From Candidatus Levyibacteriota bacterium (GTDB lineage Bacteria > Patescibacteriota > Microgenomatia > Levybacterales > UBA12049): DNA of 64,000 nucleotides. The notes beneath the pieces are model-generated. The model had not been told where the DNA came from. It saw only the letters and a list, made by a program, of their open reading frames with translations, and did not search any database. The position numbers and the translations under genes were made by a program. The stretch spans positions 26,974 to 90,973 of the forward strand of contig PJMG01000002.1 in the NCBI GenBank assembly GCA_003173895.1, read 5' to 3'. Each line of letters begins with the position of its first letter. The stretch's first letter is position 1. Shown here in pieces: positions 13,235 to 42,525 of the stretch.

Positions 13235-13235
13235 T

Positions 13236-14153
13236 ATGAAAAAAAATTTAACCATTACTATTGGTATACCAGCATATAATGAAGAAGCAAATATAAGTAA
13301 TTTATTACATGATTTGTTTATGCAAAAATTTGACAATTTTGTACTAAGTCAAATAATTATTTCATCTGATGGATCCACTGATAGAACTAATAAAATTATA
13401 AAAAATTTAAAAAACCGAAATGTAAAATTAATTGTAAATAAAACTAGAATAGGGATAGCACGTGGACTTAATCAAATAATCAAAGCAAGTAATACAGATA
13501 TTTTAATACTATTAGATGCTGATATAAGGATTATTGATAAATATTTTATAAAAAAACTTATAGAACCTATTGTTAAAACCCAAGCAGATTTAACATCTTC
13601 TAAGATTAAACCATTAGACCCTAAGAATTTTTTCTCCAAAATTCTAGCAGTCAGTATGCTTTATAAATCAATTATTTTTATTAACGTAAATAATGGCAAT
13701 AATGTTTATACCTGTTATGGACTAGCACGGGGTTTATCAAAAAGATTTTATAAAAAACTTAAATTTCCAGTATCTATTGGAAATGATATGTATTCTTATT
13801 TAGCATGCAAAAAGAAAAATTTTAATTTTATAAATGTTTCAAGTGCAATTGCTTATTATAGATTACCTGATAATTTTAATGATCATAAAAAACAAAGCCA
13901 AAGATTTTATTTTACTGAAAATGAACAAGAGAAATTATTTGATAAAAATTTTGTTAAATCCCAGACTCATATCCCATTTAGCGCCTATTTAGACAGTATT
14001 GGCAATCTAAGCCAAATTTTGATAAAATATCCTATATTAACTTTTGCCTATTTATCTATTCTTTTTTACATTAAATTAAGTAAAAAACCTGAAAATGCTA
14101 AAAATCAAAAATGGGATATAGCTAAAAGTTCTAAAAATTTATCGATAATATGA
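13236..14153 (+). CDS. GT2 glycosyltransferase, paralog 3
   Basis: LTITIGIPAYNEEANI and ISSDGSTDRT. It starts 2 nt after the end of paralog 2. Confidence 0.65.
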   Translation: MKKNLTITIGIPAYNEEANISNLLHDLFMQKFDNFVLSQIIISSDGSTDRTNKIIKNLKNRNVKLIVNKTRIGIARGLNQIIKASNTDILILLDADIRIIDKYFIKKLIEPIVKTQADLTSSKIKPLDPKNFFSKILAVSMLYKSIIFINVNNGNNVYTCYGLARGLSKRFYKKLKFPVSIGNDMYSYLACKKKNFNFINVSSAIAYYRLPDNFNDHKKQSQRFYFTENEQEKLFDKNFVKSQTHIPFSAYLDSIGNLSQILIKYPILTFAYLSILFYIKLSKKPENAKNQKWDIAKSSKNLSII

Positions 14154-14950
14154 GCGCACTATATATACCAATGAGACGAACTATGTATTTAACTTTAGGC
14201 ATGGTTAATAATATAGTTAAGTTAAAAAATAAAAATATATTTATACTTTGCTATCATAGTATTAGTAATGATGGATGGGCTTTTGCTGTTAGTTTACAAA
14301 ATTTTAAAAAACAAATTAATTATTTAAAAGATAAATACCAATTTATAACTCTTTCAGATTTATTAGATTATATTAATGGTAAAAAGAATATTGATAAACC
14401 TTCAGTAGTACTGACTTTTGATGATGGTTATAAAGACGTATTACAAACAGTTAGTTTTTTAAAAAATAAAAAAATAAAACCAACTATGTTTCTTCTTTCC
14501 GATATTAAGCATGCTAATAGGAAAGAATTAGCTACAAATCGTGCATTTTTAAATAAAGGAGAACTAAAATCATTAATTAAAAATGGTTGGGAACTAGGTT
14601 CTCATACTGCTACTCACGCTAATATGAATACCTTAAATAATAAAGAAATAATAGATGAAATTATTAATTCTAAAAAAACACTTGAAAAAGAATTAAATAT
14701 TTCAATCCAATATTTAGCTTATCCTAAAGGTAAATATAATGAAAAAATTTTATCTGCTGTAAAAAAAGCAAAATATAAAATGGCTCTAACTATGGATGAT
14801 GGAAACATTCAAAAAGGAATAAATATTTATAGAATCCCTAGAATTGGAGTGGATGGAACTCATTCATTTAGTGAATTTAAAAATCTTTTTTTACCATTAA
14901 ATATAAAAGCAAGAGAGATAATTAAATCAGTATTTTATAAACAAAAATAA
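14150..14950 (+). CDS. Polysaccharide deacetylase, CE4 / NodB homology domain
   Basis: VVLTFDDGYKDV matches the Asp-Asp motif. SHTATHANM matches the metal-binding His motif. Confidence 0.75.
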   Translation: MSALYIPMRRTMYLTLGMVNNIVKLKNKNIFILCYHSISNDGWAFAVSLQNFKKQINYLKDKYQFITLSDLLDYINGKKNIDKPSVVLTFDDGYKDVLQTVSFLKNKKIKPTMFLLSDIKHANRKELATNRAFLNKGELKSLIKNGWELGSHTATHANMNTLNNKEIIDEIINSKKTLEKELNISIQYLAYPKGKYNEKILSAVKKAKYKMALTMDDGNIQKGINIYRIPRIGVDGTHSFSEFKNLFLPLNIKAREIIKSVFYKQK

Positions 14951-14965
14951 TACGATAATAAAATT

Positions 14966-16150
14966 ATGAAAAATAAAAAGATATCAATAATAGTTAAATA
15001 CTTTTATCCAGTTACTGCTGGGATAGAAACTAATATCGCTGAAACCTACAGTGTATTGACAAAAAAGGGGTGGAATATTGATATCCATACTTCTAAAGAT
15101 ACACTTACAGAAAAAAATGTATTACCAAATAAAGATATAATTCAAGACCTAAATGTTAAGAGATATCCTTTTAGTAAATTTGGTTACTGGCCAAAAATAA
15201 ATTGGGCCCAAACAGATCTTATTTGTCTCCATAATTTTGATATTTTCCCTCATTTTCAGATACTAGTTTATTTAATGATTCGCAAATGGTTTAAAATAAA
15301 AACTGGCAAAATAGTGCTTACTCCTCATGGAGGTTTTACGCCAGAATGGTCTACATTTTCTTTTATACAAAGAACTATCAAAAAAACTTATCATAAAACA
15401 CTAGGAGCTTGGTTAATCAATAATACTGTGGATGTTACGAGAGCAGTATCTGAATGGGAGAGAGATGAGATCATAAAATATGGAGTTAAAAAAGAATTAG
15501 TAGTCATGATCCCGAATGGAGTAGAAAATGAAGCTTACAAAAATCTAGAAAAATTAGCATCTACTGATATTAAAAGAAAAGTAAAATCATTTAGAAACTA
15601 TATTATACAAATTGGTAGAATTTATAAAATAAAGAATTATGAAACTACTATCCGAGCATTAGCAAAAACTCCAAAAAATTTAAAATATGTAATAGCTGGC
15701 CCTATCCAAAAGGATAAAACCTATCAACAGTTTTTAGAAAAATTAATAGACAAATTAGCTTTAACAAATAGAGTCATTTTTTTAGGTGTAGTTAAAGGTG
15801 TAGATAAATATTATTTAATTAAGCATGCCCAAATGATGGTTCATATGGCACTTTGGGAAAGTTTTTGTAATGTGGTTCATGAAGGACTTAGCCAGGGACT
15901 GGTATGTATAGTCGCTAATAATACTGCACTTCCCTATTTAATCAAAAATGGAATTAATGGCTATTGTTTAGAAACTACAAATGAAAATAAAGTCGCAGAA
16001 AAAATAAATTTTGTTTTAAAAAATAAGAACAGTAAATTTATAATAGATATGGAAAAAAGAAATAGAAAGTATGGTTTAGAAAATTCGTGGGAGAATGTCG
16101 CGTATAAGATAAATGATTTATATAAAAATTTATTAGAGAATAATTTATGA
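14966..16150 (+). CDS. Glycosyltransferase, GT4 family
   Basis: ALWESFCNVVHEGLSQGLVCIVANNTALPYLIKNGINGY is a Glycos_transf_1-like block. Confidence 0.6.
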   Translation: MKNKKISIIVKYFYPVTAGIETNIAETYSVLTKKGWNIDIHTSKDTLTEKNVLPNKDIIQDLNVKRYPFSKFGYWPKINWAQTDLICLHNFDIFPHFQILVYLMIRKWFKIKTGKIVLTPHGGFTPEWSTFSFIQRTIKKTYHKTLGAWLINNTVDVTRAVSEWERDEIIKYGVKKELVVMIPNGVENEAYKNLEKLASTDIKRKVKSFRNYIIQIGRIYKIKNYETTIRALAKTPKNLKYVIAGPIQKDKTYQQFLEKLIDKLALTNRVIFLGVVKGVDKYYLIKHAQMMVHMALWESFCNVVHEGLSQGLVCIVANNTALPYLIKNGINGYCLETTNENKVAEKINFVLKNKNSKFIIDMEKRNRKYGLENSWENVAYKINDLYKNLLENNL

Positions 16151-16911
16151 TAGTAGAAACCATAAAAAAACTTATTAGTTCATTTTTTATTGAAACAACC
16201 GTCGTTATACCAGAGACTAATATGCTCCAAAAAAAAGTTGTTATTATCACTGGAGCAAGTGGCGGTGTTGGCAGAGCTGTGGGATTAACATTACTAAAAG
16301 AAAAGGCAATTGTGATTGCTGCTGGACGCAATATGCAGAGATTACAAAAAATATATAGTAAAAATAATGGTCACGTATTTCTTTTTTGTGCTGATGTAAC
16401 CAAAGAAAAAGATGTTAAAGAATTAGTACGCACAGTAATTAAAAAATACGGCAGAATTGATGCGCTGATTAACTGTGCAGGAGTATTTTTAGAAAAATCG
16501 ATAGAAAATACAACAGAAAAAGAATTCAGCAATATTGTAAATGTTAATATGAAAGGATTATTTTTGATGACGCGTGAAGTAGTACCATATATGAAGAAAA
16601 GAAACCAAGGGTTAATTATAAATATAGGTTCAAAAATCAGTCATAACTCTGGTGTTGCTCCTAAAAAAACGCTTTATGCAATGACCAAGTACGCTGTTGA
16701 AGGATTAAGTATTGCGTTATCGAATGAACTTCATAAATGGGGTATTAAAGTAACCTGTCTTATGCCGGGAACAATTAATACGTTTGTTTCTTTTAAATCG
16801 AAAAAATATCTTTCACCTTACTCTGTAGGTTATATTATTCTTATGATGCTACAACTTGAACAGGTTACATTTGAAAGTATCATTTTTAAATCAAAAAAAC
16901 AATATATATGA
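16147..16911 (+). CDS. Short-chain dehydrogenase/reductase (SDR)
   Basis: TGASGGVGRA matches TGxxxGxG. YAMTK matches YxxxK. The start overlaps the upstream stop as ATGA; an internal Met at 16222 is an alternative start. Confidence 0.8.
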   Translation: MIVETIKKLISSFFIETTVVIPETNMLQKKVVIITGASGGVGRAVGLTLLKEKAIVIAAGRNMQRLQKIYSKNNGHVFLFCADVTKEKDVKELVRTVIKKYGRIDALINCAGVFLEKSIENTTEKEFSNIVNVNMKGLFLMTREVVPYMKKRNQGLIINIGSKISHNSGVAPKKTLYAMTKYAVEGLSIALSNELHKWGIKVTCLMPGTINTFVSFKSKKYLSPYSVGYIILMMLQLEQVTFESIIFKSKKQYI

Positions 16912-18713
16912 AAAGCTTTAAATTAAAAATAAATAAAAAAATATTTAGCAATATAAACCTATCTATACATACTTTTATAAATAAAGTTATTTCCAAAATA
17001 AAAACAAAAGTGACTGTTTTTAAAAATTCGCCATTTTTCTTAGAAAATAAATTTATTTTAGATTATATCTCTAAATTATTTAAAGGTGTAATAAAATTTT
17101 TCCCTAAAAATAAAAGTACATTTATTACTATTTTTACACTGCTAATTTCAATTTTATTTTTCTCGACTATTATTAAAGGTGGCAAAGGAAATCCTATCTA
17201 TTATCAAGTGGAACATAATAAACAAATAGGGGGACCTTTTGAAGATTCTATAAGTTCCGCCAGATATGCTTTAACAGAATCTATTGTTCTAAATCAATCA
17301 CTTTTCCTTTCACCTAGTTTAGCAGAATTTGCAGCACCAGACGTAGTTTATTACAAAGGTAAATTTACTTCGGTTTTTACACCAGGAATTTCATTTTTAG
17401 GTGTACCTTTTTATTTTATTGGAAGTTTGCTTGGATTACCTCAATTATTTACTTATTTTGCTACTATACTTTTTGCTATATTAGATATTTTCCTTATAGC
17501 TAGAATTGCAGTAAAAGTTGGTTCTTCATATTTAGCTGGTATAATTGGCGGATGTATTTTTATATTTTGTACAAACGCTTTAACATATGGAATAAATTTT
17601 ACACAGCATGATGTAACTGCTGCAGTAGTTTTACTGGCTTTACTTAACGCATTCTCTAAAAGAAATTGGATAAATAATACTTTATTTGGTGTTCTAGTTG
17701 GAGCTAGTTTATTAATAGATATTCCAAATATTATTTTTTTGGCTCCTATTGGTTTATATATTTTGGCAAAAAGTTTTAGCTTTAAACAAATCAGAACACG
17801 TACTCAATTAATTTTTAATACTACTATTTTTGGTTTTATAGTTGGATTTATTCCCTTAATAATGCTTTTTGGTTGGTATAATTATCAGACTACTGGCTCA
17901 TATACTAAATTAGCCCAAAGTATAGGTATAACTAGTATGTTTTCTAAAAATGTCCCTCCTCAATTTGCGCCTAATAAACCATCTACGGCTCAACCAGTAT
18001 CTTTTAACTTTAATTTACATATCCCATTTGAAACACGTATTCAAGTAGAGGGTTTATACATTTTACTATTAAGTAACGAAAGATCTTGGATATTTTATTC
18101 TCCAATAGTTTTTGTTGGATTAATAGGCTTTATTTTACTTTATACAAAGATTGAAACACGATCTAAATCGCTGCTTATTTTAAGCATTATTATCGTAAAC
18201 ATACTTTTATATTCTATGTTTGATGATCCTTGGGGAGGATGGGCTTTTGGACCTAGATATTTGATACCTTCAGCAGCACTTTTAACAACTATGATTCCAG
18301 CTGCTATTGATCGTTTTAGGAAAAATATTATATTTATACTGCTATTTGTAATATTACTATATTATAGTATTTGGGTTAATGTTTTAGGAGCTTTAACCAC
18401 GTCTGCTATACCCCCTAAAGTAGAAGCGGTAGCATTACCTACACACATTCCATGGACATATAAATATAATGAACAGCTTATTAGTACTGGATTATTAACT
18501 TCTCTTATATATAATCTTTTTTTAACTAATTTAATTAGTCCCAACTTTTATTGGAATATACTTACAATTTCTATTTTTGTTTTCTTTATCATTTTATATA
18601 TTTTGCAATTTACTAAAACTGATAGAGTGGAATTTTTTCAGTCAATTTCACATGGATTTTATATTAAAAATAAATTTAAGTCAGTTTTTAATAGATTATT
18701 TAAATCACACTAA
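16908..18713 (+). CDS. GT-C fold membrane glycosyltransferase (PMT/ArnT-like), paralog A
   Basis: 601-aa multi-pass protein. Loop motif DDPWGGWAFGPRYLIP is shared with the ORF at 21620. The N-terminal loop is also similar. Confidence 0.5.
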   Translation: MKSFKLKINKKIFSNINLSIHTFINKVISKIKTKVTVFKNSPFFLENKFILDYISKLFKGVIKFFPKNKSTFITIFTLLISILFFSTIIKGGKGNPIYYQVEHNKQIGGPFEDSISSARYALTESIVLNQSLFLSPSLAEFAAPDVVYYKGKFTSVFTPGISFLGVPFYFIGSLLGLPQLFTYFATILFAILDIFLIARIAVKVGSSYLAGIIGGCIFIFCTNALTYGINFTQHDVTAAVVLLALLNAFSKRNWINNTLFGVLVGASLLIDIPNIIFLAPIGLYILAKSFSFKQIRTRTQLIFNTTIFGFIVGFIPLIMLFGWYNYQTTGSYTKLAQSIGITSMFSKNVPPQFAPNKPSTAQPVSFNFNLHIPFETRIQVEGLYILLLSNERSWIFYSPIVFVGLIGFILLYTKIETRSKSLLILSIIIVNILLYSMFDDPWGGWAFGPRYLIPSAALLTTMIPAAIDRFRKNIIFILLFVILLYYSIWVNVLGALTTSAIPPKVEAVALPTHIPWTYKYNEQLISTGLLTSLIYNLFLTNLISPNFYWNILTISIFVFFIILYILQFTKTDRVEFFQSISHGFYIKNKFKSVFNRLFKSH

Positions 18714-18715
18714 AT

Positions 18716-20341
18716 ATGATAAATATTAATCAAATCACTTTAAACGTACCAAACGGCTTATTTAAAAATACGGTTTCTAATTTTTTTAAAAAATATGCAA
18801 TTGTGTTTCTATCCATTATTTTATCTATTATTTCAATTGGTTCTTTTATACTTTTTTATAAAAATGGATTAGGGCTAGCCTACAATGATGCTAGATCACA
18901 TTTAGATATCGGCCGCCGCGTGGTAGAAGGTCTTAAACCAGGATTAGCTCAATTAGGTTCTGTTTGGCTACCTTTACCTCATATGCTCATGATTCCTACT
19001 ATTTGGAATGATTTTATGTGGCATTCTGGTCTTTCAGGTGCTTTACAATCCATGATTTCATTTGTAGGTACAGGTATTATTATTTACGTTTTCCTTAAAA
19101 AACTTAATGTTAACTTTATTGGAAGAATAATTGGTTTATTAGTTTTCGTGGCCAATTGGAACGTTTTATATCTTCAATCAACTGCTATGACTGAATTATT
19201 ACTTATTGGAACTATGACTGCTGGTGTTTATTATTTACTAATTTGGCAAGATTCAGAGAAAATTTTAGATTTAATTAAAGCCTCATTTTGGATAATGCTT
19301 TCTACTTTAAATCGTTATGATGGTTGGTTTTTATTAGTCATGGCAACTATTTTAGTAGGAATTATTACTTTAAGAAAACGCGGATATAAAGTAACTGAAG
19401 GTGTTATATTATTATTTTTAACATTAGCAGGAATTGGAATTGCATTATGGGTTTTATGGAATCTTCTTATTTTTAAAGATCCTTTATACTTTATCTTAGG
19501 CCCCTATTCTGCACATGCTCAGCAACAACAATTATCCCAAGCTGGTAACTTACCAACTAAGCATAATTTATGGCTTTCAACTTTTATATATTATTATGCA
19601 TTGGCTTTTAATGTAGGTATAGTAACACTTATCATAGGATCTATAGGAACTTTATTATTTTATTTTGATAAAAAAATTAGCTCAAACGTAAAGATTATTT
19701 GTTTAGCATTATTTGCGCCACTTATTTTTAATATTATTGCTTTATACTTTGGTTTTTCAGTTCTTTTTATTCAAGGTATTTCTGGAAATACTTGGTTTAA
19801 TGTTCGTTATGGAGTTATGATGGTCCCAACTATTGCTATTTTTATTGGCTATTTAGTAAGTAAACTTAAAAATTTTAGACCTGTACTTATAGGAGTTATT
19901 CTTATGATACTTTTCTTTTCCATGTCTAGTGCTGATGCTGTAACCGTAGATGATGCTAGAGTAGGTTCAAGCCAAGTAAATGTTAGTGCCGCTGGTAATT
20001 GGTTAAATCAAAATGCTAAAAATAAACCAGGATTTGTACTTATTTCTGCAGCTTCTCATGATGCTATAATTTTCTCATCAGGACTTCCAATGAGTAAATT
20101 TATTCATGAAGGAACTGGAGCTTATTGGTTATCTGCTACTAAAAGCCCAGATAGATGGGCTAGATGGATAGTTATGAGAACAAATGATAATACAGATCAG
20201 ACTTGGAAACTGGTTAGTAAATCTCCTGGTTTTAAACGTTTTAAGCTAGTTGGGCACTTCCCATTTGCAGATATTTATGAACTTAAGCCTCAATATCTAA
20301 ATCAACTGGAAACAAAACCTGTTTTCGGAAAACAAAAGTAA
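18716..20341 (+). CDS. Multi-pass membrane protein, possibly a GT-C-like glycosyltransferase
   Basis: 541 aa with about 11 TM helices. An extracytoplasmic loop after TM1 reads YNDARSHLDIGRRVVEG. Confidence 0.3.
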   Translation: MININQITLNVPNGLFKNTVSNFFKKYAIVFLSIILSIISIGSFILFYKNGLGLAYNDARSHLDIGRRVVEGLKPGLAQLGSVWLPLPHMLMIPTIWNDFMWHSGLSGALQSMISFVGTGIIIYVFLKKLNVNFIGRIIGLLVFVANWNVLYLQSTAMTELLLIGTMTAGVYYLLIWQDSEKILDLIKASFWIMLSTLNRYDGWFLLVMATILVGIITLRKRGYKVTEGVILLFLTLAGIGIALWVLWNLLIFKDPLYFILGPYSAHAQQQQLSQAGNLPTKHNLWLSTFIYYYALAFNVGIVTLIIGSIGTLLFYFDKKISSNVKIICLALFAPLIFNIIALYFGFSVLFIQGISGNTWFNVRYGVMMVPTIAIFIGYLVSKLKNFRPVLIGVILMILFFSMSSADAVTVDDARVGSSQVNVSAAGNWLNQNAKNKPGFVLISAASHDAIIFSSGLPMSKFIHEGTGAYWLSATKSPDRWARWIVMRTNDNTDQTWKLVSKSPGFKRFKLVGHFPFADIYELKPQYLNQLETKPVFGKQK

Positions 20342-20342
20342 G

Positions 20343-21614
20343 ATGAAAAAATATGCCCTTACAATTTCTGCATCTATTCTCTTAATGTTTTTTATTTTTA
20401 CATTAGTTTCACATAGTGTAAAATCTAATGTAACTAATAAAACTTTTTGGCCGATTCAATCAATAGATACTATGAAATATTCTAGAGATGATTCTGCTGA
20501 TTCTTCTATTTATCAAAAAATACCAATAATTGTAAGTGAAGTGGCAAACCTTCATGCGAATTATATTTCGATAGATACTCCTTATGATGATCAATTTTAT
20601 CCTGTCCTTAAAGCATGGGTAGATGAAGCCAGACAAGAACATTTAAAAATCTGGTTTAGAGGAAATTTTTCTGCTTGGGAAGGATGGTTCGGATATCAAA
20701 AGTTTAGTAATCCAAATGAAGATCACGCTTTAGTTCATGACTTTATTATTAAACATCCAGATCTTTTTCAAAATGGAGATATTTTTACTTCTGTCCCTGA
20801 GGCAGAAAATGGTGTAATAGGTGATCCACGCGGTTCTGATGAAAAAACTCAACAGTTTAATCAATTTTTAATAACTTCATATAATAACTGTGTTAGTAGT
20901 TTTGAAATTATTCATAAGCAAGTTTCATGTGGTTACTTTAGTGTAAACGGCGATGTAGCAAAAGAGGTTTTAACACCAGAGACAATTAAGCAAATTGGTA
21001 ATGTAGTAGTTATAGACCACTATGTAGATAGTTCTGCTCAAATGGATGTGGATTTGCATTTTTTAACTAATAAATTCCCTAATGCAGAAATAATTCTGGG
21101 GGAATTTGGTGCACCTATTCCGGATATTAATGGAGACATGAATGAAACTCAGCAAGCAGAATTTTTAAATCAATTACTTAATGTTTTTTATGAAAATAAA
21201 AATGTAATTGGTGGAATTAATTATTGGGTAGGTTCAGGTGGATCAACCGCTCTTTATAGAGATGATAATACTGAGAAACCAGCGGTTAAAATAATGCAAA
21301 AGTATTACGACCCTTCAGTAGTAAGTGGAATCGTAACTAATACTGATGGTACTCCATTATCTAATATCTCTATATACGGTATAAATAATTTGCTCTTAGC
21401 CACTACTGATTCCAATGGTAATTATAGTTTTCCGGCTTTTTCAGATTCTCCTATGGAGTTAAGTATTAGTGATCCACATTATCAAAAAATTGATCAGATT
21501 ATTGTACCTAAAAATAGGCAAATGACATACAATATTATACTCTCTCCTAAGAAAACTAATATTATTTATAAAATACGTCTCTTTATAAATAGTTTATTTA
21601 ATTTGTCAAAATAG
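20343..21614 (+). CDS. Secreted protein with a putative clan GH-A-like hydrolase domain and a C-terminal carboxypeptidase-regulatory-like beta-sandwich
   Basis: An N-terminal signal/anchor is present. IILGEFGAP is a candidate nucleophile motif. The C-terminal segment SGIVTNTDGTPLSNISIYG...TTDSNGNYSF resembles CarboxypepD_reg. Confidence 0.35.
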   Translation: MKKYALTISASILLMFFIFTLVSHSVKSNVTNKTFWPIQSIDTMKYSRDDSADSSIYQKIPIIVSEVANLHANYISIDTPYDDQFYPVLKAWVDEARQEHLKIWFRGNFSAWEGWFGYQKFSNPNEDHALVHDFIIKHPDLFQNGDIFTSVPEAENGVIGDPRGSDEKTQQFNQFLITSYNNCVSSFEIIHKQVSCGYFSVNGDVAKEVLTPETIKQIGNVVVIDHYVDSSAQMDVDLHFLTNKFPNAEIILGEFGAPIPDINGDMNETQQAEFLNQLLNVFYENKNVIGGINYWVGSGGSTALYRDDNTEKPAVKIMQKYYDPSVVSGIVTNTDGTPLSNISIYGINNLLLATTDSNGNYSFPAFSDSPMELSISDPHYQKIDQIIVPKNRQMTYNIILSPKKTNIIYKIRLFINSLFNLSK

Positions 21615-21619
21615 ACTGT

Positions 21620-23152
21620 ATGTTTTTAAAAATTAAAAATAATTTTGGTCTAATTTTATTAATTTTCTTTATTAGTTTTATTTATTTTCTTACATTAAGA
21701 GGAGTTAATGGAAATTTATACCCTAATGGAAAAGGTAATGAAAAAATTATATCAAACACTCCTCCTTTTGAGACATCCCTAGAAAGAGGCAGATATGCTC
21801 AAACTATAGCAATTGCTGAGAATCATACATTCATTCTAGATAAATTTAGAAATTTTATAAAACCTGATTTAGCCTGGTATAATGGTCATTATTTTTCTCC
21901 ATTCCCTCCTGGAGTTTCAGTTTTAGCTACACCCTTTTATTTAATTGGTAAGAAGACGCAGTTAAATCAACTTTTTACTTTTTCTACTTCTGCAATTTTC
22001 TCTATTCTTACGGGCATTATACTTATTTTTATTGGTAAAAAAATTAATTTTTCTAATAGATCTATTGCTCTCATGCTTTTAGTTTATTTAGTAGCATCCA
22101 ACGGTTGGGCATATGGAGTAACTTTTTCTGCTCATCCTATTTCTGCTTTTATTATTTCCACTTTTTTTTTACTAGGTCTTAATATTAAACCTGGTAAGAA
22201 TAATATTTTAAATTTTATTTTACTAGGCTTTCTTTATGGATTAAATTTTTATATTGATTATCCTAACCTTTTTATTTTAATTCCCTTATTAATTTGGGCC
22301 GTGTTTAAAAGCTTTTCTAGTCATAATGAGAAGGAAAATTATGAAATTTCTATACCTTCCAGTTTATTATTTATAATTTTGTCATTTTTGGTTTCTCTTA
22401 TACCCTTTTTTATATTTAATTTTCATTATTATCATAAATGGATTGCTCTCACTAATAGTTATAATCTAAAAGCATTGGAAGAAAGAGGAGTAACTTTTTC
22501 TTATAACCATCTTTCTAATAGCCTATTTAATAAAAAATCATATTCTACCAGATTTGATTTTATGAGTATCCCACGTGGAATTTTTACGCTAATTTTTAGT
22601 AGTGATCGAGGATTATTATTTTTCTTTCCTATTTATATCTTTGGATTTTTAGGATTTATAATGGGGCTCTTTAAGAAAAATAAATTTATAATTCCTCTTT
22701 TTCTCACTTTTTTATTTGATTTGCTTTTATATGGTTCGTTTAATGATCCTTGGGGAGGATGGGCTTTTGGACCTAGATATTTAATCCCAGTTTTACCACT
22801 TTTCGCTATATTTATAGGCTTAGCATTTGAATACTTAGAAAAGAGAACAATTTTTAAAATTATTTTTAGTTTCTTATTTATATTTAGTTCTATAGTTGCT
22901 TTAGCAGGCGCACTTACTACTAATGCTGTACCTCCTATTATAGAAAATATTCCAAATACTCCTACTAATTTCATGCTTAATTTTCAATTTTTAATGAATA
23001 ATATGACGAGCTCTTTTTTCTATAATACATTTCTTAGACATATTTTATCTCCTTTCTCTTATTACTTAGCTCTATTATCAGTGACTATTTTAGTGATTCT
23101 ATTTATAATCTGGCTCCCATTATTACATATTGCAAAAAATACGAAAATGTGA
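21620..23152 (+). CDS. GT-C fold membrane glycosyltransferase (PMT/ArnT-like), paralog B
   Basis: Shares NDPWGGWAFGPRYLIP and N-terminal loop similarity with the ORF at 16908. Confidence 0.5.
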   Translation: MFLKIKNNFGLILLIFFISFIYFLTLRGVNGNLYPNGKGNEKIISNTPPFETSLERGRYAQTIAIAENHTFILDKFRNFIKPDLAWYNGHYFSPFPPGVSVLATPFYLIGKKTQLNQLFTFSTSAIFSILTGIILIFIGKKINFSNRSIALMLLVYLVASNGWAYGVTFSAHPISAFIISTFFLLGLNIKPGKNNILNFILLGFLYGLNFYIDYPNLFILIPLLIWAVFKSFSSHNEKENYEISIPSSLLFIILSFLVSLIPFFIFNFHYYHKWIALTNSYNLKALEERGVTFSYNHLSNSLFNKKSYSTRFDFMSIPRGIFTLIFSSDRGLLFFFPIYIFGFLGFIMGLFKKNKFIIPLFLTFLFDLLLYGSFNDPWGGWAFGPRYLIPVLPLFAIFIGLAFEYLEKRTIFKIIFSFLFIFSSIVALAGALTTNAVPPIIENIPNTPTNFMLNFQFLMNNMTSSFFYNTFLRHILSPFSYYLALLSVTILVILFIIWLPLLHIAKNTKM

Positions 23153-24386
23153 TAATATAGGCTTTACTTTTACAAAAAGTATCCTGCCTTATGATATGAA
23201 AGGCGGGATTTTTTTTAACCAAAAATTAGCTTCTATTTTTAAATTTTTAGCAGTAATTCTAGTTACTTTTGTATTTGGCAGTTTTACGCTTTTTAATCAG
23301 ACTTTTGCTTCTGAGACACCAATTTTTCCATCATGTAATGCTCCTGAAGGTTCAGTAATCGCTCCTCTTACTAATGGTGATCATGGAATAGTAGGAGATT
23401 CTTCCAGTCATACAGGTTCAGACATCGTTTATTCTGTGGATTCTAGTAGAGTTCTACAATGCTTTTGTAATGGATCAAGCGGAATTCAAACTAATTGGTG
23501 GGCCATTTCTGATTATAGTCAAATAGACTCTCTAGAAGCTCAAGGTTGGATTTACGTTCCTACAGGTGAATCCTGGGGACTTTCTAATCAAGCATATCTA
23601 GCACAAAATCTAAGCTACACCTGTGGAGGTAGCAGTAATAATTCAAACAGCTCAAATGACCCAGGCGGTAACGGTGGAAATGGATCAGTTTCAGCACCAG
23701 TCTGCAATGATCCTGTACCTGGAAGCACTCCTACCATTACCAGTATCTCTCAAGGAACAAATAGTCTAACTATTACCTGGACTCCAGCTTCAAATCCTGT
23801 CAGTTACTATTTAGTTGCTTACGGTACACAACCTGGTGACTATACCTTTGGTGACCCAAATGTAGGCAATGTAACCAGTTTTACCATTCAAGGCTTATCA
23901 GGTGGAACTACATATTATGTAGTGGTTAGAGCTGTAAATGGATGTAAACCAGGTGATTTGTCTAATGAAGTAAGTGCTACTCCAGATGGAGGAATTATAA
24001 ATACTCCAGCTTTAGGTTTTAATCCTTTAGTTTTAGGGGCTACATCTTCTGCTAGCTTAGCAAAAGATATTACAGCAGGAATTCAAGCATGTGGTCAATG
24101 TTTATGGTGGCCTATTATTTTAGCTGATATAGCAGCCCTTTTACTTTATTATCTTCTCGTTAGAAAACAACCATTTAAGATAAGCAGATTATTTGTGGGC
24201 GCTGCGATTAGTATAGTTGCATATATAGTTTTCTTAATTTTAAATAAAGGTAAAGTTTGTCCTGATGGAAGTATTTACTTATTCTTCTTAAGTATTCCAT
24301 GTAGATACTTCTGGGCACTGGACGGAGTAGTTTATATATTAATCAGCTGGTTTACCAGAGGTGTTAGTTCTTCAAAAAAATCTTAA
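23130..24386 (+). CDS. Cell-surface protein with a signal peptide, Ser/Asn/Gly-rich linker, fibronectin type III domain and C-terminal TM anchor. The track ORF starts at TTG 23130; ATG 23196 (MKGGIFF...) is the more likely start.
   Basis: Signal-like segment MKGGIFFNQKLASIFKFLAVILVTFVFGSFTLFNQTFA. FN3 block TITSISQGTNSLTITWTPASNPVSYYLVAYGTQPGDYT. Hydrophobic C-terminus. Confidence 0.5.
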   Translation: MQKIRKCDNIGFTFTKSILPYDMKGGIFFNQKLASIFKFLAVILVTFVFGSFTLFNQTFASETPIFPSCNAPEGSVIAPLTNGDHGIVGDSSSHTGSDIVYSVDSSRVLQCFCNGSSGIQTNWWAISDYSQIDSLEAQGWIYVPTGESWGLSNQAYLAQNLSYTCGGSSNNSNSSNDPGGNGGNGSVSAPVCNDPVPGSTPTITSISQGTNSLTITWTPASNPVSYYLVAYGTQPGDYTFGDPNVGNVTSFTIQGLSGGTTYYVVVRAVNGCKPGDLSNEVSATPDGGIINTPALGFNPLVLGATSSASLAKDITAGIQACGQCLWWPIILADIAALLLYYLLVRKQPFKISRLFVGAAISIVAYIVFLILNKGKVCPDGSIYLFFLSIPCRYFWALDGVVYILISWFTRGVSSSKKS

Positions 24387-31256: not shown

Positions 31257-32177
31257 ATGAACATACCCGATTTAGATGAAATTGTTTTAGAAACTTTAGA
31301 TTTTTTTAGTAAAAATCCACCACCTTCATTTAATCCTAAAGATTATGATCTTCCCTTTGTAGTAGGTTCAGGTAATGCATATAATACTGGCCTTATTATC
31401 TTTTCTGAGCAAGCAGCTATATTTGCAGATGAAAGCAATTTTAGAACTATTCTTCCTGCATTTGAAAAAGCAGTAACTAACAAACTCATAACTCAAGCCG
31501 TAATTATTTCTGCTTCTGGAGGAAAAGATTCTGTATGGGAAATTGAATTAGCTAAAAAATATGGTTTACAAACTACTCTTATTACTACTAAAGCTGAATC
31601 TCAAGCAGCTAAAATAGCAGATAAAATATTTGCCTTTAAATCAATTGATGAACCTTATACATATAATACTTCCACATATATGGGAATGATTTTAGGCGCT
31701 ACTCATGAAAATATCACTAATATTCAAGGAGCGATAAAATCTCTCAAATTCCCAGAGAATTTTAATGAGTATAAAAGTTATTCATTTGTATTACCAGATA
31801 AATTTTCAGCTATTTGTCCCATGCTAGATATTAAACGTCATGAATTATTCGGACCACAGGTATCTTTACGTGCCTTCCCTGAAGGACATGCCAGACATGC
31901 CAAATTCGTAATTAGAACTAAAAACGAATTAGTAATCTCAATTAATGAAAAGAATGAATTTTTTGGTGATCCAGAAAGTCGTTGGAATATTAGCTTAGAT
32001 CAAAATGTTAACTTCGCTATGATAATGGCAGTTACTTACTATATAGTAGGTAAAATACAAAAATCTAAACCACCTTATTTTAAAGAAAATATAGGTAATT
32101 ACGTTTCTGATTATGGACCTAAAGCTTACGGGCCTACCACTGCTCCATTTGATTTAATCGTTCCAGGATCTAAGTAA
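31257..32177 (+). CDS. SIS-domain sugar-phosphate isomerase-like protein. It may be a bifunctional PGI/PMI-type enzyme.
   Basis: FVVGSGNAYNTG and AVIISASGGKDSVWEIELAKKYGLQTTLITT resemble the SIS fold. The length of about 300 aa fits. Confidence 0.45.
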   Translation: MNIPDLDEIVLETLDFFSKNPPPSFNPKDYDLPFVVGSGNAYNTGLIIFSEQAAIFADESNFRTILPAFEKAVTNKLITQAVIISASGGKDSVWEIELAKKYGLQTTLITTKAESQAAKIADKIFAFKSIDEPYTYNTSTYMGMILGATHENITNIQGAIKSLKFPENFNEYKSYSFVLPDKFSAICPMLDIKRHELFGPQVSLRAFPEGHARHAKFVIRTKNELVISINEKNEFFGDPESRWNISLDQNVNFAMIMAVTYYIVGKIQKSKPPYFKENIGNYVSDYGPKAYGPTTAPFDLIVPGSK

Positions 32178-34075: not shown

Positions 34076-35329
34076 ATGGCAAAAATTAAAAATATACAAG
34101 CTAGAGAAATTCTGGCTGCAGATACTAAACCTACTATAGAAGTTTTCGTAGAGTTAAATGACGGAACTATTGCTAAATCATCTTGCCCTATAGGCTATAA
34201 AGCAGGCGAATATGAATCTTTTTCTATGTTTGAAAGAGATGATAATGGAGAAATCTTAAGTGTTAAAAAAGTAATTGAAAATATTACTAATATTATCGCT
34301 CCCAAATTAATAGGCCAAGAAGCTTCTAAACAACAGCAAATTGATCACATGCTTATAGAATTGGATGGTACTCAAAATAAAATTAAGCTTGGGGCAAATG
34401 CTATGCTAGCTACTTCTCAAGCTATAGCTAAAGCCAGCGCTAAAGTAGCTAAATTACCTTTATTTTTATATTTAAGAGAATTTATATCTAAAAATCCTCA
34501 GATTAGAATTCCAACGACTATTTTTTCTGCTATCGCGGGTAGTAAAAAAGTAAATTCTAACATAGATTTTGAGGAAATTTTAGTTTTACCTACTAGCAGT
34601 TCTTCTTTAGAAAATTCTATTAAATTATATAAAAAAATTAATCAAAAAATTTTAGATTATCTAAAATCAAAAAATGAAAAATTTCTCATTTCGCCTAGAG
34701 GAGCTTATTCTCCTAATGCACAAACCAATGAAGAAAGTTTATCTATTTTAAAAGAAATTATTTCAGATTGTGGATATCAATTAGGTTTTGATTTATTTTT
34801 GGGTGTAGATGCTGCAGCGGATAATTTTTATGAAGCTAAAAAATATAAATTGGCTGATAGAGAATCTTCATTAGATGCTAAAAGTTTAATCTCCTTTTAT
34901 GAAAGTTTGGTAACTGATTATCATATTCTTTATTTAGAAGATCCTATTTATGAACAGGACTTAGAGAGCTGGCAAAATCTAACTAATTCTATTTCTAGAA
35001 GCACAATAGTAGTTTCTGATCGCATGACGGCTACAAATTTATATCGTCTTCAAATGGCTTTAGACAAAAAATCTATCACAGGTATGTCTATAAAACCCAT
35101 TCAAACTGGTACTGTTATAGAAGCTTTAGCGACAGCCGAAGTGGCTAAAGCAGCGGGTATTAAAATCGTAGTTTCTTCTAGAACTTTTGAAACTGATGAT
35201 GATTTTATAGCAGACTTCGCAGTAGCAGTAGGTGCAGATTATATAAAATTTGGAGCTCCCACCCGTGGGGAACATATAGCTAAATATAATAGGCTTTCTA
35301 AAATTGAAGAACAAATTAAGATGCTATAA
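34076..35329 (+). CDS. Enolase-family protein (divergent enolase homolog)
   Basis: Clear enolase blocks are present: MLIELDGTQNKIKLGANAMLA, LGVDAAADNFY, ILYLEDP, SIKPIQTGTV, TDDDFIADFAV and IKFGAPTRGEHIAKYNRLSKIEE. Several catalytic positions appear substituted, as detailed in the findings. Confidence 0.6.
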   Translation: MAKIKNIQAREILAADTKPTIEVFVELNDGTIAKSSCPIGYKAGEYESFSMFERDDNGEILSVKKVIENITNIIAPKLIGQEASKQQQIDHMLIELDGTQNKIKLGANAMLATSQAIAKASAKVAKLPLFLYLREFISKNPQIRIPTTIFSAIAGSKKVNSNIDFEEILVLPTSSSSLENSIKLYKKINQKILDYLKSKNEKFLISPRGAYSPNAQTNEESLSILKEIISDCGYQLGFDLFLGVDAAADNFYEAKKYKLADRESSLDAKSLISFYESLVTDYHILYLEDPIYEQDLESWQNLTNSISRSTIVVSDRMTATNLYRLQMALDKKSITGMSIKPIQTGTVIEALATAEVAKAAGIKIVVSSRTFETDDDFIADFAVAVGADYIKFGAPTRGEHIAKYNRLSKIEEQIKML

Positions 35330-35432
35330 GATTTTATAATTTTAATTCTTACTACAAGAAATTTAATCCCACAAAGCAAATTTATTTCATGTTGTCCTTT
35401 ACAGAACAATCCTATAATGTTATAATTGTCTC

Positions 35433-36716
35433 ATGCCAGAAGTCACTAGAAGAAAACTCATAACAGGAACTGCTCTTTCTATTATAGCAGCAGAAACAGG
35501 CGTTATTTTAGGACAAAATCTAGAAAGTAATGCAAATTTTATCTTACCTCGTGAAACTATTGAGACTAACTTTAAAGATGGTTTGGAGCCTTGGTTAGAC
35601 ACATTTAATAGTGTCTCTACTCTAAGACGAAAATTAGGTGCTACTCCATCCTACTTTTACTTACGAAACGGTTCAAATATTTATAATGGAGAAGCATTAT
35701 TAGCAAAGATTGCTAGAGGAATTGCATCTACTCAGGAAAAAAATCTTTTGGCAGATGGATGGTTTAAAGAAGATATTATTAAGGTTAAAAAGGGAGATAT
35801 AATGGTCGAAACAGATAATTATGACCCTTTACTGGATAATATACGTGAACAACAGATTGAAAGAGTTCGGAACACAATTCAAATTATAATACCACCTGAA
35901 ACTAAAAACCCAATAGAGTATGAAAAGCAAATCAGAGATGCTTTAGCAGATTTTGCTTATATTGCTCCACAAATGATAGAAATGCTACCTAATACCATTA
36001 AAATTAGAAATGATATGGGAGGTTTAACTTACTATGATCAGGAATTAGTAGAACTTCCTTCATTTGAGAATAAAGAAGATTTCTGGGTAGCTCTTATTCA
36101 TGAAGCTAGACACCGAATAGAGTTTGTTTTATTAGAACATAAAAATATACTAGTAAAAGAACGTGTGGCTCAATATTTTAATACTAAATTACATGCTATC
36201 GACAGAATAGCAGAAACTTATTTACGGGCTACATGGTCAGCAGCAGAATGGTTTAAATTTGGATTTAATGATTTTATTCCTTATGACTCAAATATAGTTA
36301 ATAGTAGATATATATCAAACTTAGAAAATTACTTTAAACAAAAATATAATATTAAGTTACTTCCTAAGTATGATGGTGAAAGCGATGGAAATAGATATAA
36401 TCAATTAATTCATGCTGTAGGACAATTAGCTCTTAAAAAACCTGAAATTTTAGCAGATGATAAAATTACTAGTTTAATGCAAGTATTAGTAGACGAAATT
36501 TTCCACTTCTTAGTAGGCCCTGTACAAGGATCCAAATCTATTGGATTACCTTCTGATAAGAATCCTATCTCGAATCCTATGCATCCATATAACACTGCTA
36601 ATTTAGAAACTCAGTGGGAAGCATGGAATACATTTGGAGGAATTGATCTAGGAGGATTAGATGATGATTTCTTTAGTTTGATAAGGAGACTTCTTAAACT
36701 GGATCCTTGGTCATAA
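35433..36716 (+). CDS. Putative Tat-secreted HExxH metallopeptidase-like protein
   Basis: N-terminal MPEVTRRKLITGTALSIIAAETG has a twin-arginine motif plus a hydrophobic region. An internal ALIHEARHRIEF segment carries HExxH. Confidence 0.4.
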   Translation: MPEVTRRKLITGTALSIIAAETGVILGQNLESNANFILPRETIETNFKDGLEPWLDTFNSVSTLRRKLGATPSYFYLRNGSNIYNGEALLAKIARGIASTQEKNLLADGWFKEDIIKVKKGDIMVETDNYDPLLDNIREQQIERVRNTIQIIIPPETKNPIEYEKQIRDALADFAYIAPQMIEMLPNTIKIRNDMGGLTYYDQELVELPSFENKEDFWVALIHEARHRIEFVLLEHKNILVKERVAQYFNTKLHAIDRIAETYLRATWSAAEWFKFGFNDFIPYDSNIVNSRYISNLENYFKQKYNIKLLPKYDGESDGNRYNQLIHAVGQLALKKPEILADDKITSLMQVLVDEIFHFLVGPVQGSKSIGLPSDKNPISNPMHPYNTANLETQWEAWNTFGGIDLGGLDDDFFSLIRRLLKLDPWS

Positions 36717-39834: not shown

Positions 39835-41826
39835 ATGAAATTTAAAGTTGTTTCTAATTTTAACCCTAGTGGTGATCAACCTCAAGCCATAAAACAGTTA
39901 AGCACCAACATTAAAAATAATGCTAAACATCAAGTGCTTTTAGGTGTTACAGGCAGTGGGAAAACCTTTACCATGTCTAAAATTATAGAAGAAGTTCAAA
40001 AACCAACTTTAGTAATAGCACATAATAAAACTTTGGCTGGACAACTTTATCAAGAATTTCGCGAGTTTTTTCCTCATAACGCAGTATCATATTTTGTTTC
40101 TTATTATGACTATTATCAACCGGAAGCTTATGTTCCCCAATCAGATACTTATATCGAAAAAGAATCTGAAATTAATGAAGAGATCGATAAACTTAGACTG
40201 GCTGCCACTGCGAATTTACTAACTAGGAAAGACGTTATCGTAGTAGCTTCTGTCTCCTGTATTTATTCTCTGGGCTCACCAGTTGAATATGGAAAGTTTG
40301 TTTTGGAAATAAAAGCTGGCATGAAAATAAATCAAAAAGATATTTTAATCCGACTCACTGATCTTCAATATGACAGAAATGATTTTGGTTTTCATAGAGG
40401 TTCATTTAGAGTCAGAGGAGAAGATATAGAACTGCTTCCAGCATATATGGATACAGGTCTTAGAATAATTATTAAAGAAAATTTTTTAAGGAAAATAGAA
40501 GAATTTGATCCTTTGACTGGAGATACTATTTCAAATATTGATGCAACAATAGTCTACCCCGCTAAACATTATATGACTGATCCGAAAACTTATGAAAATG
40601 TTTTTAAAGAAATTAGAACAGATTTAGGTAAACAAATCGAAATATTTAAAAAACAAAATAAATTACTTGAAGCTCAGAGAATCCAGCAAAGAACTAATTT
40701 TGATTTACAAATGATTCAGGAAGTAGGCTACGTAAATGGAATTGAAAATTATTCCAGATATTTTGAAGGTAGAAATCCTGGAAGTGCTCCTTATACACTC
40801 CTGGATTATATGAAAGCTTGCTCTGAAGATTGGCTTTTATTCGTGGATGAATCTCACATGAGTTTACCTCAGGTCCGTGGAATGTATAATGGCGATCGAG
40901 CGCGAAAAGAAGTCTTAATAGACTATGGATTTAGACTACCTAGCGCTTTAGATAATAGACCGCTTAAGTTTGAAGAATTTATGTCTCGAGTTAATCAAGC
41001 TGTGTATGTAAGCGCTACTCCATCAGATTTTGAAATGTCACTAGCTACTGAAACACCTAATGGGGTGGCAGAACAATTAATAAGACCTACTGGCATAGTC
41101 GATCCTATAGTCGAAGTTAGACCAACTAAAGGCCAAATTCCAGATTTAATGCAGGAGATTTTAAAACGAATTGAGAAACATGAGCGCGTTCTAGTTACTA
41201 CTTTAACCAAAAGAATGTCGGAGGAATTAACTTTTTACCTTCAAGAACGAAATATTAAAGTTCTTTATCTTCATTCAGATATAGAGACTTTAGAACGCCA
41301 GGAAATATTAGACAAACTTCGCCGCGGAGATGTAGATGTAGTTGTAGGAATTAATTTACTTCGAGAGGGTTTAGACTTACCAGAAGTTACTTTAGTGGCA
41401 ATTTTAGACGCGGATAAAGAGGGCTTTTTAAGAAGTAAAACCTCGCTGATTCAAACTATGGGCCGCGCTGCTCGAAATATAAACTCCAGAGTTATTCTTT
41501 ATGCAGATAAACAAACAGACTCTATGAAATTTGCTATTTCTGAGGTAGAAAGACGACGAAAAATCCAATTAGAATATAATAAAAAACATCACATTACTCC
41601 TAAAAATATCCAGAAATCTATAAGAGAAAGATTAGTGGAATATGAAGAAGACATTCCTGCTGAAGATGTAGTTTTTAAAGATTTAGAGAATAAAGAAATT
41701 TTACTTCCTGATGATAAAAAGAAAATGAAAAAGCTTCTTAAAGAACGAATGACTCAAGCAGCGAAAAATCTCGACTTCGAATCCGCAGCAATGTTAAGGG
41801 ATAAGATAAAAAGTTTAGATAAATAA
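39835..41826 (+). CDS. uvrB: Excinuclease ABC subunit B (UvrB)
   Basis: Walker A is GVTGSGKTFT. There are helicase motifs, a beta-hairpin region and a C-terminal UVR domain. Similarity is full length. Confidence 0.95.
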   Translation: MKFKVVSNFNPSGDQPQAIKQLSTNIKNNAKHQVLLGVTGSGKTFTMSKIIEEVQKPTLVIAHNKTLAGQLYQEFREFFPHNAVSYFVSYYDYYQPEAYVPQSDTYIEKESEINEEIDKLRLAATANLLTRKDVIVVASVSCIYSLGSPVEYGKFVLEIKAGMKINQKDILIRLTDLQYDRNDFGFHRGSFRVRGEDIELLPAYMDTGLRIIIKENFLRKIEEFDPLTGDTISNIDATIVYPAKHYMTDPKTYENVFKEIRTDLGKQIEIFKKQNKLLEAQRIQQRTNFDLQMIQEVGYVNGIENYSRYFEGRNPGSAPYTLLDYMKACSEDWLLFVDESHMSLPQVRGMYNGDRARKEVLIDYGFRLPSALDNRPLKFEEFMSRVNQAVYVSATPSDFEMSLATETPNGVAEQLIRPTGIVDPIVEVRPTKGQIPDLMQEILKRIEKHERVLVTTLTKRMSEELTFYLQERNIKVLYLHSDIETLERQEILDKLRRGDVDVVVGINLLREGLDLPEVTLVAILDADKEGFLRSKTSLIQTMGRAARNINSRVILYADKQTDSMKFAISEVERRRKIQLEYNKKHHITPKNIQKSIRERLVEYEEDIPAEDVVFKDLENKEILLPDDKKKMKKLLKERMTQAAKNLDFESAAMLRDKIKSLDK

Positions 41827-41827
41827 A

Positions 41828-42154
41828 CTAAACTGTAGCAATGTGTGATTTTCCTATTTTTTTAATTCTTTCTTCATGATTATCAAAATTTTCTTTGGTG
41901 TGATAATCACCTATTAATTTATACTCTCTACTTTTTTCCAATTCTCTTACAATATAATCCATCTTATTTAATATTTCATCTCGATAGCCCCGGGCCTTTT
42001 CGTCCATTTCCTCAAATCTTCTATCAATTTGATCAAATTTATCATCATGTTCATCTAGTTTTTTATTATTTCTCGCAATCTTTGTCTCTAAATTGTCAAA
42101 TTTTTTATCGTGTTCATCTAACTTAGAAGTTATTTTAACAAATATTTTGTCAAT
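41828..42154 (-). CDS. Unannotated small ORF encoding an acidic helical repeat protein. It has no canonical start; the first ATG gives only 59 aa.
   Basis: The minus-strand frame is open from 42202 to stop 41828-41830. It encodes the tandem peptide repeat LDEHDKKFDNL...LDEHDDKFDQI. Confidence 0.25.
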   Translation of the reverse strand: MDKIFVKITSKLDEHDKKFDNLETKIARNNKKLDEHDDKFDQIDRRFEEMDEKARGYRDEILNKMDYIVRELEKSREYKLIGDYHTKENFDNHEERIKKIGKSHIATV

Positions 42155-42159
42155 GACTG

Positions 42160-42525
42160 TTATCCACTTATATTTTCCATATGTTCTATATTGGTAACTA
42201 TATTATTCTTTACTTCAATAGACACTGCATCAATTCTTAGAGCTTGGGGTAATCTAGGATGAGTTATGGCATAGAACTGCGCCGCTTTAAAAAGATTTTT
42301 TAATTTAAAATAGTTTATAGCCTCTATCGGTGTACCAAAAGAATTGGAAGTTCTACTTTTCACTTCAAAAAAAACCATAGTGGATTCAAATGGATCTAAA
42401 GCGATAATATCAATTTCCGCGTATTTAGGTCTGTAATTCCGTTCTAAAATCTTATAACCTTTCTCAAACAAGTATTTAGCAGCAGCATCTTCACCTAATT
42501 TCCCTACAGGGTTGGAAATTTTCAT
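42160..42525 (-). CDS. yraN: YraN/UPF0102 family putative endonuclease
   Basis: GKLGEDAAAKYLFEKGYKILERNYR...AEIDIIA. Confidence 0.6.
   Translation of the reverse strand: MKISNPVGKLGEDAAAKYLFEKGYKILERNYRPKYAEIDIIALDPFESTMVFFEVKSRTSNSFGTPIEAINYFKLKNLFKAAQFYAITHPRLPQALRIDAVSIEVKNNIVTNIEHMENISG

Follow-up and report, generated by a model that had tools for sequence, protein, structure and literature searches.

Enolase (EC 4.2.1.11), which interconverts 2-phosphoglycerate (2-PG) and phosphoenolpyruvate (PEP), is a two-domain enzyme known from solved structures such as those from Enterococcus hirae (1IYX) and B. subtilis (4A3R), and its canonical form is also encoded by Levybacteria (P0006 and P0021; our handles beginning with P denote proteins and those beginning with L denote loci). 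Here we analyse an enolase-like open reading frame (ORF) in a 64,000-nucleotide stretch of the genome of a Candidatus Levyibacteriota bacterium (assembly GCA_003173895.1, contig PJMG01000002.1, positions 26,974 to 90,973), referred to below as the window. The window protein has the same two-domain fold as the canonical enzyme and shares the genomic position of the canonical Levybacteria enolases. In contrast to these, it carries R at E211, S at H373, K at H159, K at S39, R at D321, I at N347 and T at S375, and its loop L2 is rewritten (residues are given in yeast enolase numbering first and then, where needed, as the window residue). It is a homolog and an ortholog of enolase by fold, sequence family and position, while its sequence lacks catalytic residues that characterise EC 4.2.1.11. 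Our best reading is that it is an enolase-derived pseudoenzyme or a repurposed enolase, and not something categorically new. We lean towards a catalytically disabled ortholog that is under purifying selection and now serves some purpose besides the enolase reaction, most likely a non-catalytic one.

The importance of enolase active-site residues has been probed by mutagenesis. Poyner et al. (1996) reportedly worked on the K345A, E168Q and E211Q variants. In M. tuberculosis enolase, the E204A, E163A, K335A and D241A mutants, which correspond to E211, E168, K345 and D246 of the yeast enzyme, are non-functional, and S42A (S39 in yeast) leaves about 5% of the activity (PMC10619443). The enolase fold is also found in non-glycolytic complexes, namely the RNase E degradosome of E. 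coli (2FYM, 5OHG) and the Csm/AcrIIIA2/enolase and RibD-enolase complexes (9NO4, 9NO2), from which it can be seen that the fold is selectable for binding. The enolases of these complexes are catalytically competent and moonlight, whereas in the window protein the catalytic residues are gone.

Fold, family and genomic position of the window protein

Homology to enolase had been claimed throughout the ORF by a sequence-only reading of this DNA, and family profiles, solved structures and a structure model bear this out. The protein matches Enolase_N (PF03952, 7e-36) and Enolase_C (PF00113, 3e-57) of Pfam, and scores 339.7 bits against the NCBIfam equivalog TIGR01060 (eno), above the cut-off of 300. 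Solved enolases in the PDB align with residues 3-414 almost gap-free (E about 1e-74), at 33-35% identity, and the Levybacteria enolases are 50-53% identical to it. An AlphaFold2 model built with 68 homologs is confident (predicted local distance difference test score 92.2, predicted template modelling (TM) score 0.92), shows the N-terminal capping domain and C-terminal barrel of enolase, and superimposes on solved enolases in Foldseek with TM scores of 0.93-0.96 and a root mean square deviation of 1.6-2.0 Å.

The other subgroups of the enolase superfamily, which include mandelate racemase, muconate lactonising enzyme, MenC and methylaspartate ammonia-lyase, share the metal-ligand architecture of the barrel with the window protein, and their profiles do find it, with 34.8 bits for MR_MLE_C, 25.6 for MenC, 18.8 for muconate cycloisomerase and 16.1 for MAAL_N. 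The last three scores lie far under their cut-offs, as opposed to the eno score given above. The match to the enolase subgroup (E 2e-101) is much stronger, and weak matches of this sort are usual for any enolase. The profiles indicate no shift of the window protein to another subgroup.

The gene lies in the order holA–phosphomannomutase (PMM)–HAD–cupin–IMPase-like–306-aa ORF–PEPS-like–ENO-like–427-aa ORF–rsmI–dedA–325-aa ORF–lexA–uvrB–L19–CTP synthase, where PEPS stands for PEP synthase and ENO for enolase. The order holA–PMM–cupin–[PGI]–PEPS–ENO–rsmI–dedA–lexA–uvrB (PGI, phosphoglucose isomerase) is conserved with canonical eno loci; it recurs at the variant loci L001 and L002 and at the canonical loci L003, L004/L005 and L010. 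The neighbouring genes were confirmed by reciprocal BLAST, and Levybacteria orthologs of the flanking genes share 69-76% identity with them (UvrB 69%, CTP synthase 74-76%). Because canonical eno has these same neighbours in this order, the window gene is the positional ortholog of the Levybacteria/Microgenomates eno, changed in place, and not an extra paralog.

A redundant paralog would have been free to diverge while a canonical eno elsewhere carried glycolysis, and such a second gene had been named in the sequence-only reading as a finding that would undo its proposal. The visible sequence amounts to 64 kb of genome, which leaves room for one, but synteny speaks against it: the gene stands where eno stood ancestrally, flanked by the neighbours that canonical eno has in L003, L004 and L010, and the other variant lineages occupy that position too. 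No second enolase-like sequence was found by tblastn within the 64-kb window. Candidate phyla radiation (CPR) genomes are small, and duplicates of central metabolic genes are seldom carried in them. We therefore regard a redundant paralog as improbable.

Active-site residues that are changed and kept

Residue correspondence was taken from HMMER alignments to 1IYX and 4A3R and from a MAFFT alignment with 120 homologs, the Foldseek comparison being one of the whole fold only. The HMMER alignments contain no indels near the catalytic motifs, and HMMER, MAFFT and AlphaFold2/Foldseek agree, which rules out a shift of register as the source of the substitutions. The manual assignments of the sequence-only reading are upheld throughout. 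Both alignments place R208 at E211 (GDEGG read as SPRGA), K158 at H159 (NGGEHA read as AGSKKV), S368 at H373 (SHRSGETED read as SSRTFETDD) and K42 at S39 (SGASTG read as PIGYKAG), and they confirm the conservation of three Mg ligands and of both lysines. Further changes accompany these. D210 becomes P207 in the ISPRGA motif (VGDEGG in canonical enzymes), S375 becomes T370 within SSRTFE (canonical SHRSGE), D321 is an arginine, and loop L2 (NGGxHA in canonical enzymes) is fully rewritten, with columns N151, N154, G156, H158 and A159 altered. Among the kept residues are R374 (R369) and E168 (E167), in addition to those listed in Table 1.

The substitutions are not spread evenly over the protein. 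There are 116 columns with at least 97% conservation in canonical relatives; 81 of them are intact in all three variants described below. The remaining 35, each altered in one variant or more, are concentrated in loops L1 and L2 and in the GDEGG, GDDL, KxNQ and SHRS motifs. The window protein agrees with enolase in sequence family, in the Mg(I) ligands and in K345/K396, and departs from it at the general acid E211, at H373 and H159, in loop L2 and at S39.

Since mutants of equivalent residues are non-functional (PMC10619443), we infer that the 2-PG/PEP reaction has been lost. A working enolase with an alternative acid/base arrangement would have to do without a general acid at E211, where Arg, Asn or Lys cannot act as one, and would have to tolerate the joint loss of H373, H159, S39 and D321, although single mutants are non-functional or nearly so (PMC10619443). 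The TIGR01060 score does exceed the cut-off, the protein retains the K345 base, K396, E168, R374 and the Mg(I) ligands, and the gene occupies the eno locus. Nevertheless, scores against this profile are 310-340 in the window clade as opposed to 492-503 in canonical Levybacteria enolases (other variants, 413-442), and the PEPS, PGI and phosphoglycerate mutase (PGAM) partners are decayed or absent at the locus. We consider continued enolase activity of this kind very improbable.

Table 1. Coordinates of the enolase-like ORF, its active-site codons and other features of the window
Feature	Position	Strand	Description or basis
Enolase-like ORF, 417 aa	34076..35329	+	ORF list, Pfam/NCBIfam, PDB sequence search, AlphaFold2/Foldseek, synteny
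S39 -> K42, codon AAA	34199..34201	+	SGASTG -> IGYKAG; ligand of second Mg2+, loop L1
H159 -> K158, codon AAA	34547..34549	+	GGxHAD -> AGSKKV; loop L2
E211 -> R208, codon AGA	34697..34699	+	VGDEGG -> ISPRGA; general acid; alignments
D245 (D246), kept	34808..34810	+	Mg(I) ligand; invariant column
E288 (E295), kept	34937..34939	+	Mg(I) ligand; invariant column
D315 (D320), kept	35018..35020	+	Mg(I) ligand; invariant column
D321 -> R316, codon CGC	35021..35023	+	VGDDL -> VSDRM; GDDL motif
K340 (K345), kept	35093..35095	+	general base; alignments
H373 -> S368, codon TCT	35177..35179	+	SHRSGETED -> SSRTFETDD; alignments
K391 (K396), kept	35246..35248	+	IKTGA -> IKFGA; carboxylate-stabilising; alignments
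Degenerate PEPS ortholog, 609 aa	32235..34064	+	aligned with canonical Levybacteria PEPS
306-aa ORF	31257..32177	+	at syntenic PGI position; weak SIS-domain match (3.8e-5)
427-aa ORF	35433..36716	+	HExxH motif (HEARH), N-terminal hydrophobic segment
Promoter-like site	35398..35426		TTTACA-17-TATAAT, extended TG
holA	26755
PMM	27460		followed by HAD hydrolase
Cupin, 145 aa	29744		followed by IMPase-like gene
rsmI	36734	-	downstream of 427-aa ORF
dedA/uptA	37455		followed by 325-aa ORF
lexA	39136	-
uvrB	39835		followed by L19, CTP synthase
Glycosyltransferase fusion, 1564 aa	6775..11469	+	two GT2 and one GT4 domains
Cluster around the fusion	197..16911		glycosyltransferases, ABC-2 exporter, acyltransferases, polysaccharide deacetylase
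Large ORFs	16908..24386	+	601, 541 and 510 aa without Pfam match; CarboxypepD_reg and fibronectin-III proteins
Strand switch	~40000..42500		+ up to 41826, - from 42160

Variation of the replacements among the closest relatives

The homologs compared were the best 120 matches out of 5.8 billion proteins, scored at 17 active-site positions; the best named matches come from 'Candidatus Levybacteria / Levyibacteriota', 'Microgenomates' and 'Patescibacteria group'. About 100 of these 120 are fully canonical at the 17 positions, and among them the window pattern is shared only by P0002 and P0003 (68% identity) and by P0004 (61%). P0121 is a near-identical second assembly of the L002 protein. A profile of this clade run against 1.84 billion representatives clustered at 50% identity finds one isolated cluster at 829 bits, the next match reaching 439 bits. 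A scan of JGI metagenomes found no relative closer than 48% identity, and that best match is canonical; the ten closest loci there keep all catalytic residues, except L014, which has H373S. The variant clade is small and rare.

Within the clade, the replaced positions do not agree on their new residues. The position of E211 is occupied by R in the window protein, N in P0002 and K in P0004, and that of D321 likewise by R, N and K. At S39 the window protein and P0002 have K and P0004 has N, and at H373 they have S and P0004 has A. K396, kept in the window protein and P0002, is E in P0004, a change seen again in the independent assembly P0121. The codon for E211, GAA in canonical relatives, is AGA in the window and AAT (Asn) or AAA (Lys) in its closest relatives, so that paths from GAA through AAA to AGA or AAT are visible. 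Both E->K and D->N are single G->A transitions. The window is AT-rich, with 22-34% GC per 2-kb segment, and we discounted convergent replacement of E211 by Lys as a sign of new function since such transitions are expected in an AT-rich genome. Judged from these sequences, the variable replacements have the look of a disabled site under relaxed constraint, and not of a redesigned one. H159K, N347I and S375T are shared derived substitutions of the clade and predate the split of the three lineages.

Rate of change and purifying selection

The window protein evolves faster than canonical enolase, and its TIGR01060 score of 340 compares with about 500. In a comparison of the window with L004, UvrB (69%), CTP synthase (74%), LexA (70%) and the cupin (within 69-78%) are well conserved, whereas ENO is 51% and PEPS 23% identical; canonical Levybacteria enolases are 60-66% identical to one another. 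Root-to-tip distances in a neighbor-joining tree have a median of 0.43; they are longest in the variant clade (0.57-0.61), and the other non-canonical sequences come next.

Despite this acceleration, the gene gives little sign of being on its way to a pseudogene. The ORFs are intact in three diverged genomes (those of the window, L001 and L002) and also in P0121 at a synonymous divergence (dS) above 1, in a genome of 29% GC, where stop codons arise easily. Estimates of the ratio of nonsynonymous to synonymous divergence (dN/dS, NG86), which are rough as dS is saturated, are 0.17-0.24 for the ENO-like gene, equal to rsmI (0.18-0.24), and stand beside 0.31 for holA, 0.09 for PMM and 0.41-0.47 for the PEPS-like gene. 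The accelerated rate, the loss of catalytic residues and the decay of the neighbours could all be expected of a functionless gene; the 81 untouched columns of the 116 that are conserved in the family and the confident AlphaFold2 model speak against one, and we regard a functionless gene as extremely unlikely. Taken from the sequences, the picture is one of an active site that has been selectively eroded in an otherwise constrained protein, and not of a dying pseudogene. Because the protein is still under purifying selection, it would be kept for a role other than that of an enolase. The features of a pseudoenzyme are found together here, namely homology with loss of essential residues and, by the same rough estimate from saturated dS, purifying selection after that loss.

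Decay of the upstream PEP synthase and of its cluster

The gene upstream of the enolase-like ORF has decayed as well, a point absent from the sequence-only reading. It ends 11 nt upstream of the enolase-like start, and its product, the PEPS-like protein, aligns end to end with canonical Levybacteria PEPS. The protein lacks the phosphohistidine motif GGRTSHAAIVSRELGIP (GGRTSHAAIV), in the place of which stands KKENIS----LLENLQLP. Large segments of the ATP-grasp domain have likewise been lost or substituted, and so have PEP-binding segments, among them the one with the CGQ cysteine. Its matches to PPDK_N and PEP synthase in Pfam and NCBIfam are weak and sub-threshold. Full-length homologs of this protein are found only in the three genomes that share the window's pattern of enolase erosion, at 41-50% identity.

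Further upstream, a recognisable PGI was not found at the syntenic position in the window, and likewise not in L001. The 306-aa ORF that stands there was considered as a degenerate PGI; this is unsupported, with no Pfam hit and an hhalign probability of 0.4 against Levybacteria PGI. No PGAM lies downstream of the window gene, unlike in L003 and L010, where the cluster reads PGI–PEPS (757-758 aa, with all three domains)–ENO–PGAM (His_Phos_1)–AMP-binding enzyme. Our best reading is that the loss of enolase catalysis is part of a wider erosion of the PGI–PEPS–ENO–PGAM cluster in this lineage.

A comparison of the related loci shows how far the two genes decay together. In L003 and L010 the enolase is canonical and PEPS complete. 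In L006/L007 the enolase is eroded (P0023) and PEPS is absent (in L006, between 6942..7991 and 8001), and in L011 the enolase is eroded (P0024, E211R) beside a 178-aa PPDK_N remnant of PEPS (732..1268). A strict rule by which enolase erosion follows PEPS loss was nevertheless rejected. L009 (P0031) and L012 (P0084, E211S) combine an eroded enolase with an intact PEPS, and L004 has a canonical enolase beside a PEPS (6052..7995) without the whole His swivel domain. Enolase erosion is recurrent and often occurs alongside PEPS decay, and it is not strictly dependent on it.

Independent erosion in other Levybacteria

Other Levybacteria lineages with eroded enolases are those of P0010/P0023, P0024/P0119, P0031 and P0084. 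Like the window protein, these Levybacteria/Microgenomates orthologs lie at the same locus, have the same fold, keep D246, E295, D320 and K345 and sit on long branches. They have variously lost H159, E168, E211, D321 and H373, and differ from the window protein in being 46-53% identical to it and in having substitution sets of their own. Since each lineage has a different set and identity, the events were independent. In a wider set, 52 of the 150 nearest representatives of 50%-identity clusters (P0122-P0270) differ at one or more core catalytic positions, a count biased by the variant-clade profile, which ranks divergent sequences higher, and by singleton metagenome proteins that may hold errors. 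The commonest replacements of E211 in these representatives are K and V, and several of the proteins are long fusions of 540-888 aa.

What is kept is more uniform than what is lost. None of the 122 aligned sequences, the non-canonical ones included, departs from the Mg(I) ligands or from K345, and K396 and R374 are kept by nearly all non-canonical lineages. Among the 150 representatives, the Mg(I) ligands, K345, K396 and R374 are present in 140-148, as compared with 116-117 for H373 and E211. This asymmetry, together with the evident purifying selection, counts in favour of a repurposed enzyme. In such an enzyme the Mg(I) site, the K345 base, K396 and R374 would still enolise a phospho-carboxylate or another acid, while K42, K158, R208 and R316 would take the place of the second Mg2+ and fit the pocket to a substrate that is different or carries more negative charge, the outcome being a chemistry other than 2-PG dehydration. 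The four substitutions do add positive charge to the pocket, and the variant enolases of L009 and L012 adjoin an intact PEPS that could supply PEP. Against such a redesign, the closest relatives disagree on the new residues (two positions vary as R/N/K, one as K/N and one as S/A), one member carries K396E, AT pressure would be expected to yield E->K and D->N as single transitions, and the eroded lineages show no convergence on a common motif. The kept residues, moreover, form a buried Mg(I) network that also stabilises the enolase fold. We hold a repurposed enzyme to be rather unlikely, and favour a non-catalytic role over it because the replacements vary among the closest relatives and are reached by single AT-biased transitions.

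Surroundings of the enolase locus

The 427-aa ORF, which has no Pfam or NCBIfam match, sits between eno and rsmI in the window genome only and is absent from L001-L004. A strong promoter-like site lies between it and the enolase-like ORF; overall, scanning for promoters and terminators gave no more hits than background and was uninformative. Elsewhere in the window, a long fusion of three glycosyltransferase domains sits inside a long cluster of glycosyltransferases and other genes, and the large ORFs that follow it on the same strand are probably lineage-specific surface proteins (Table 1). Further on, a strand switch coincides with a peak in cumulative GC skew at 40-42 kb, and the region looks like one of converging replichores, similar to a terminus.

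Discussion

The sequence-only reading had offered two explanations for its substitutions, either an enolase whose active site works in an unusual way or another chemistry of the enolase superfamily. The evidence favours neither, and no new motif has become fixed at the substituted positions. In the reading that we lean towards, a catalytically disabled ortholog, the half of the active site that has been lost is the one that deals with the second metal and with the C3 hydroxyl. E211 and H373 serve the leaving C3 hydroxyl, H159 on loop L2 the closing of the loop and a phosphate contact, and S39 on loop L1 the second Mg2+, and D321 belongs to the same half. The two-domain fold is preserved as a whole, as are the Mg(I) site, K345, K396 and R374, and a need for the buried Mg(I)/Lys network in fold stability may explain why one half is kept and the other lost. 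We infer that the retained role would be a structural, binding or moonlighting use of the enolase fold, possibly with residual binding of Mg2+ and of a phospho-carboxylate.

Several observations weigh against this reading. All non-canonical lineages keep D246, E295, D320 and K345. A purely structural protein might be expected to lose some of these too, and a ligand- or metal-dependent function, possibly a catalytic one, may therefore persist. H159K, N347I and S375T are fixed within the clade, in contrast to the variable positions. The independent sequences of the clade number three, which makes conservation statistics weak, and dS saturation leaves the dN/dS values rough. The intact PEPS of L009 and L012, finally, means that the link of enolase erosion to pathway decay is not strict.

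A broader idea is that the eno of Levybacteria-type CPR is kept mainly for a non-glycolytic function, either as a binding or scaffold protein or in some new reaction that depends on Mg and acts on PEP or a phospho-acid related to it, and that in the window's clade the ENO-like and the equally rewritten PEPS-like gene are inherited together as a module of two genes whose function is new. We consider this unlikely; if it is true, the machinery of 2-PG dehydration would be repeatedly losable, with selection still maintaining the fold, K345 and the Mg(I) site.

A literature search found no description of active-site-substituted enolases in CPR. Enolase was scored by presence or absence of hidden Markov model (HMM) matches in a metabolic survey of CPR genomes (PMC7304191). 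All variants pass TIGR01060, and the eroded P0023 is deposited as 'phosphopyruvate hydratase' in GCA_001782475.1, so that such proteins are silently counted as enolases. HMM-based reconstructions of CPR metabolism would accordingly include a step of lower glycolysis that is probably not there. The locus also lets one follow, step by step, the decay of a central-metabolism cluster in reduced genomes whose ORFs are not deleted, with relatives that range from a complete PEPS–ENO–PGAM set, through a PEPS without its His domain, to a rewritten PEPS beside an eroded ENO. That one half of the active site is repeatedly eroded while the Mg(I) site and K345 persist hints at a retained role for this protein, ligand-dependent or structural, in these organisms.

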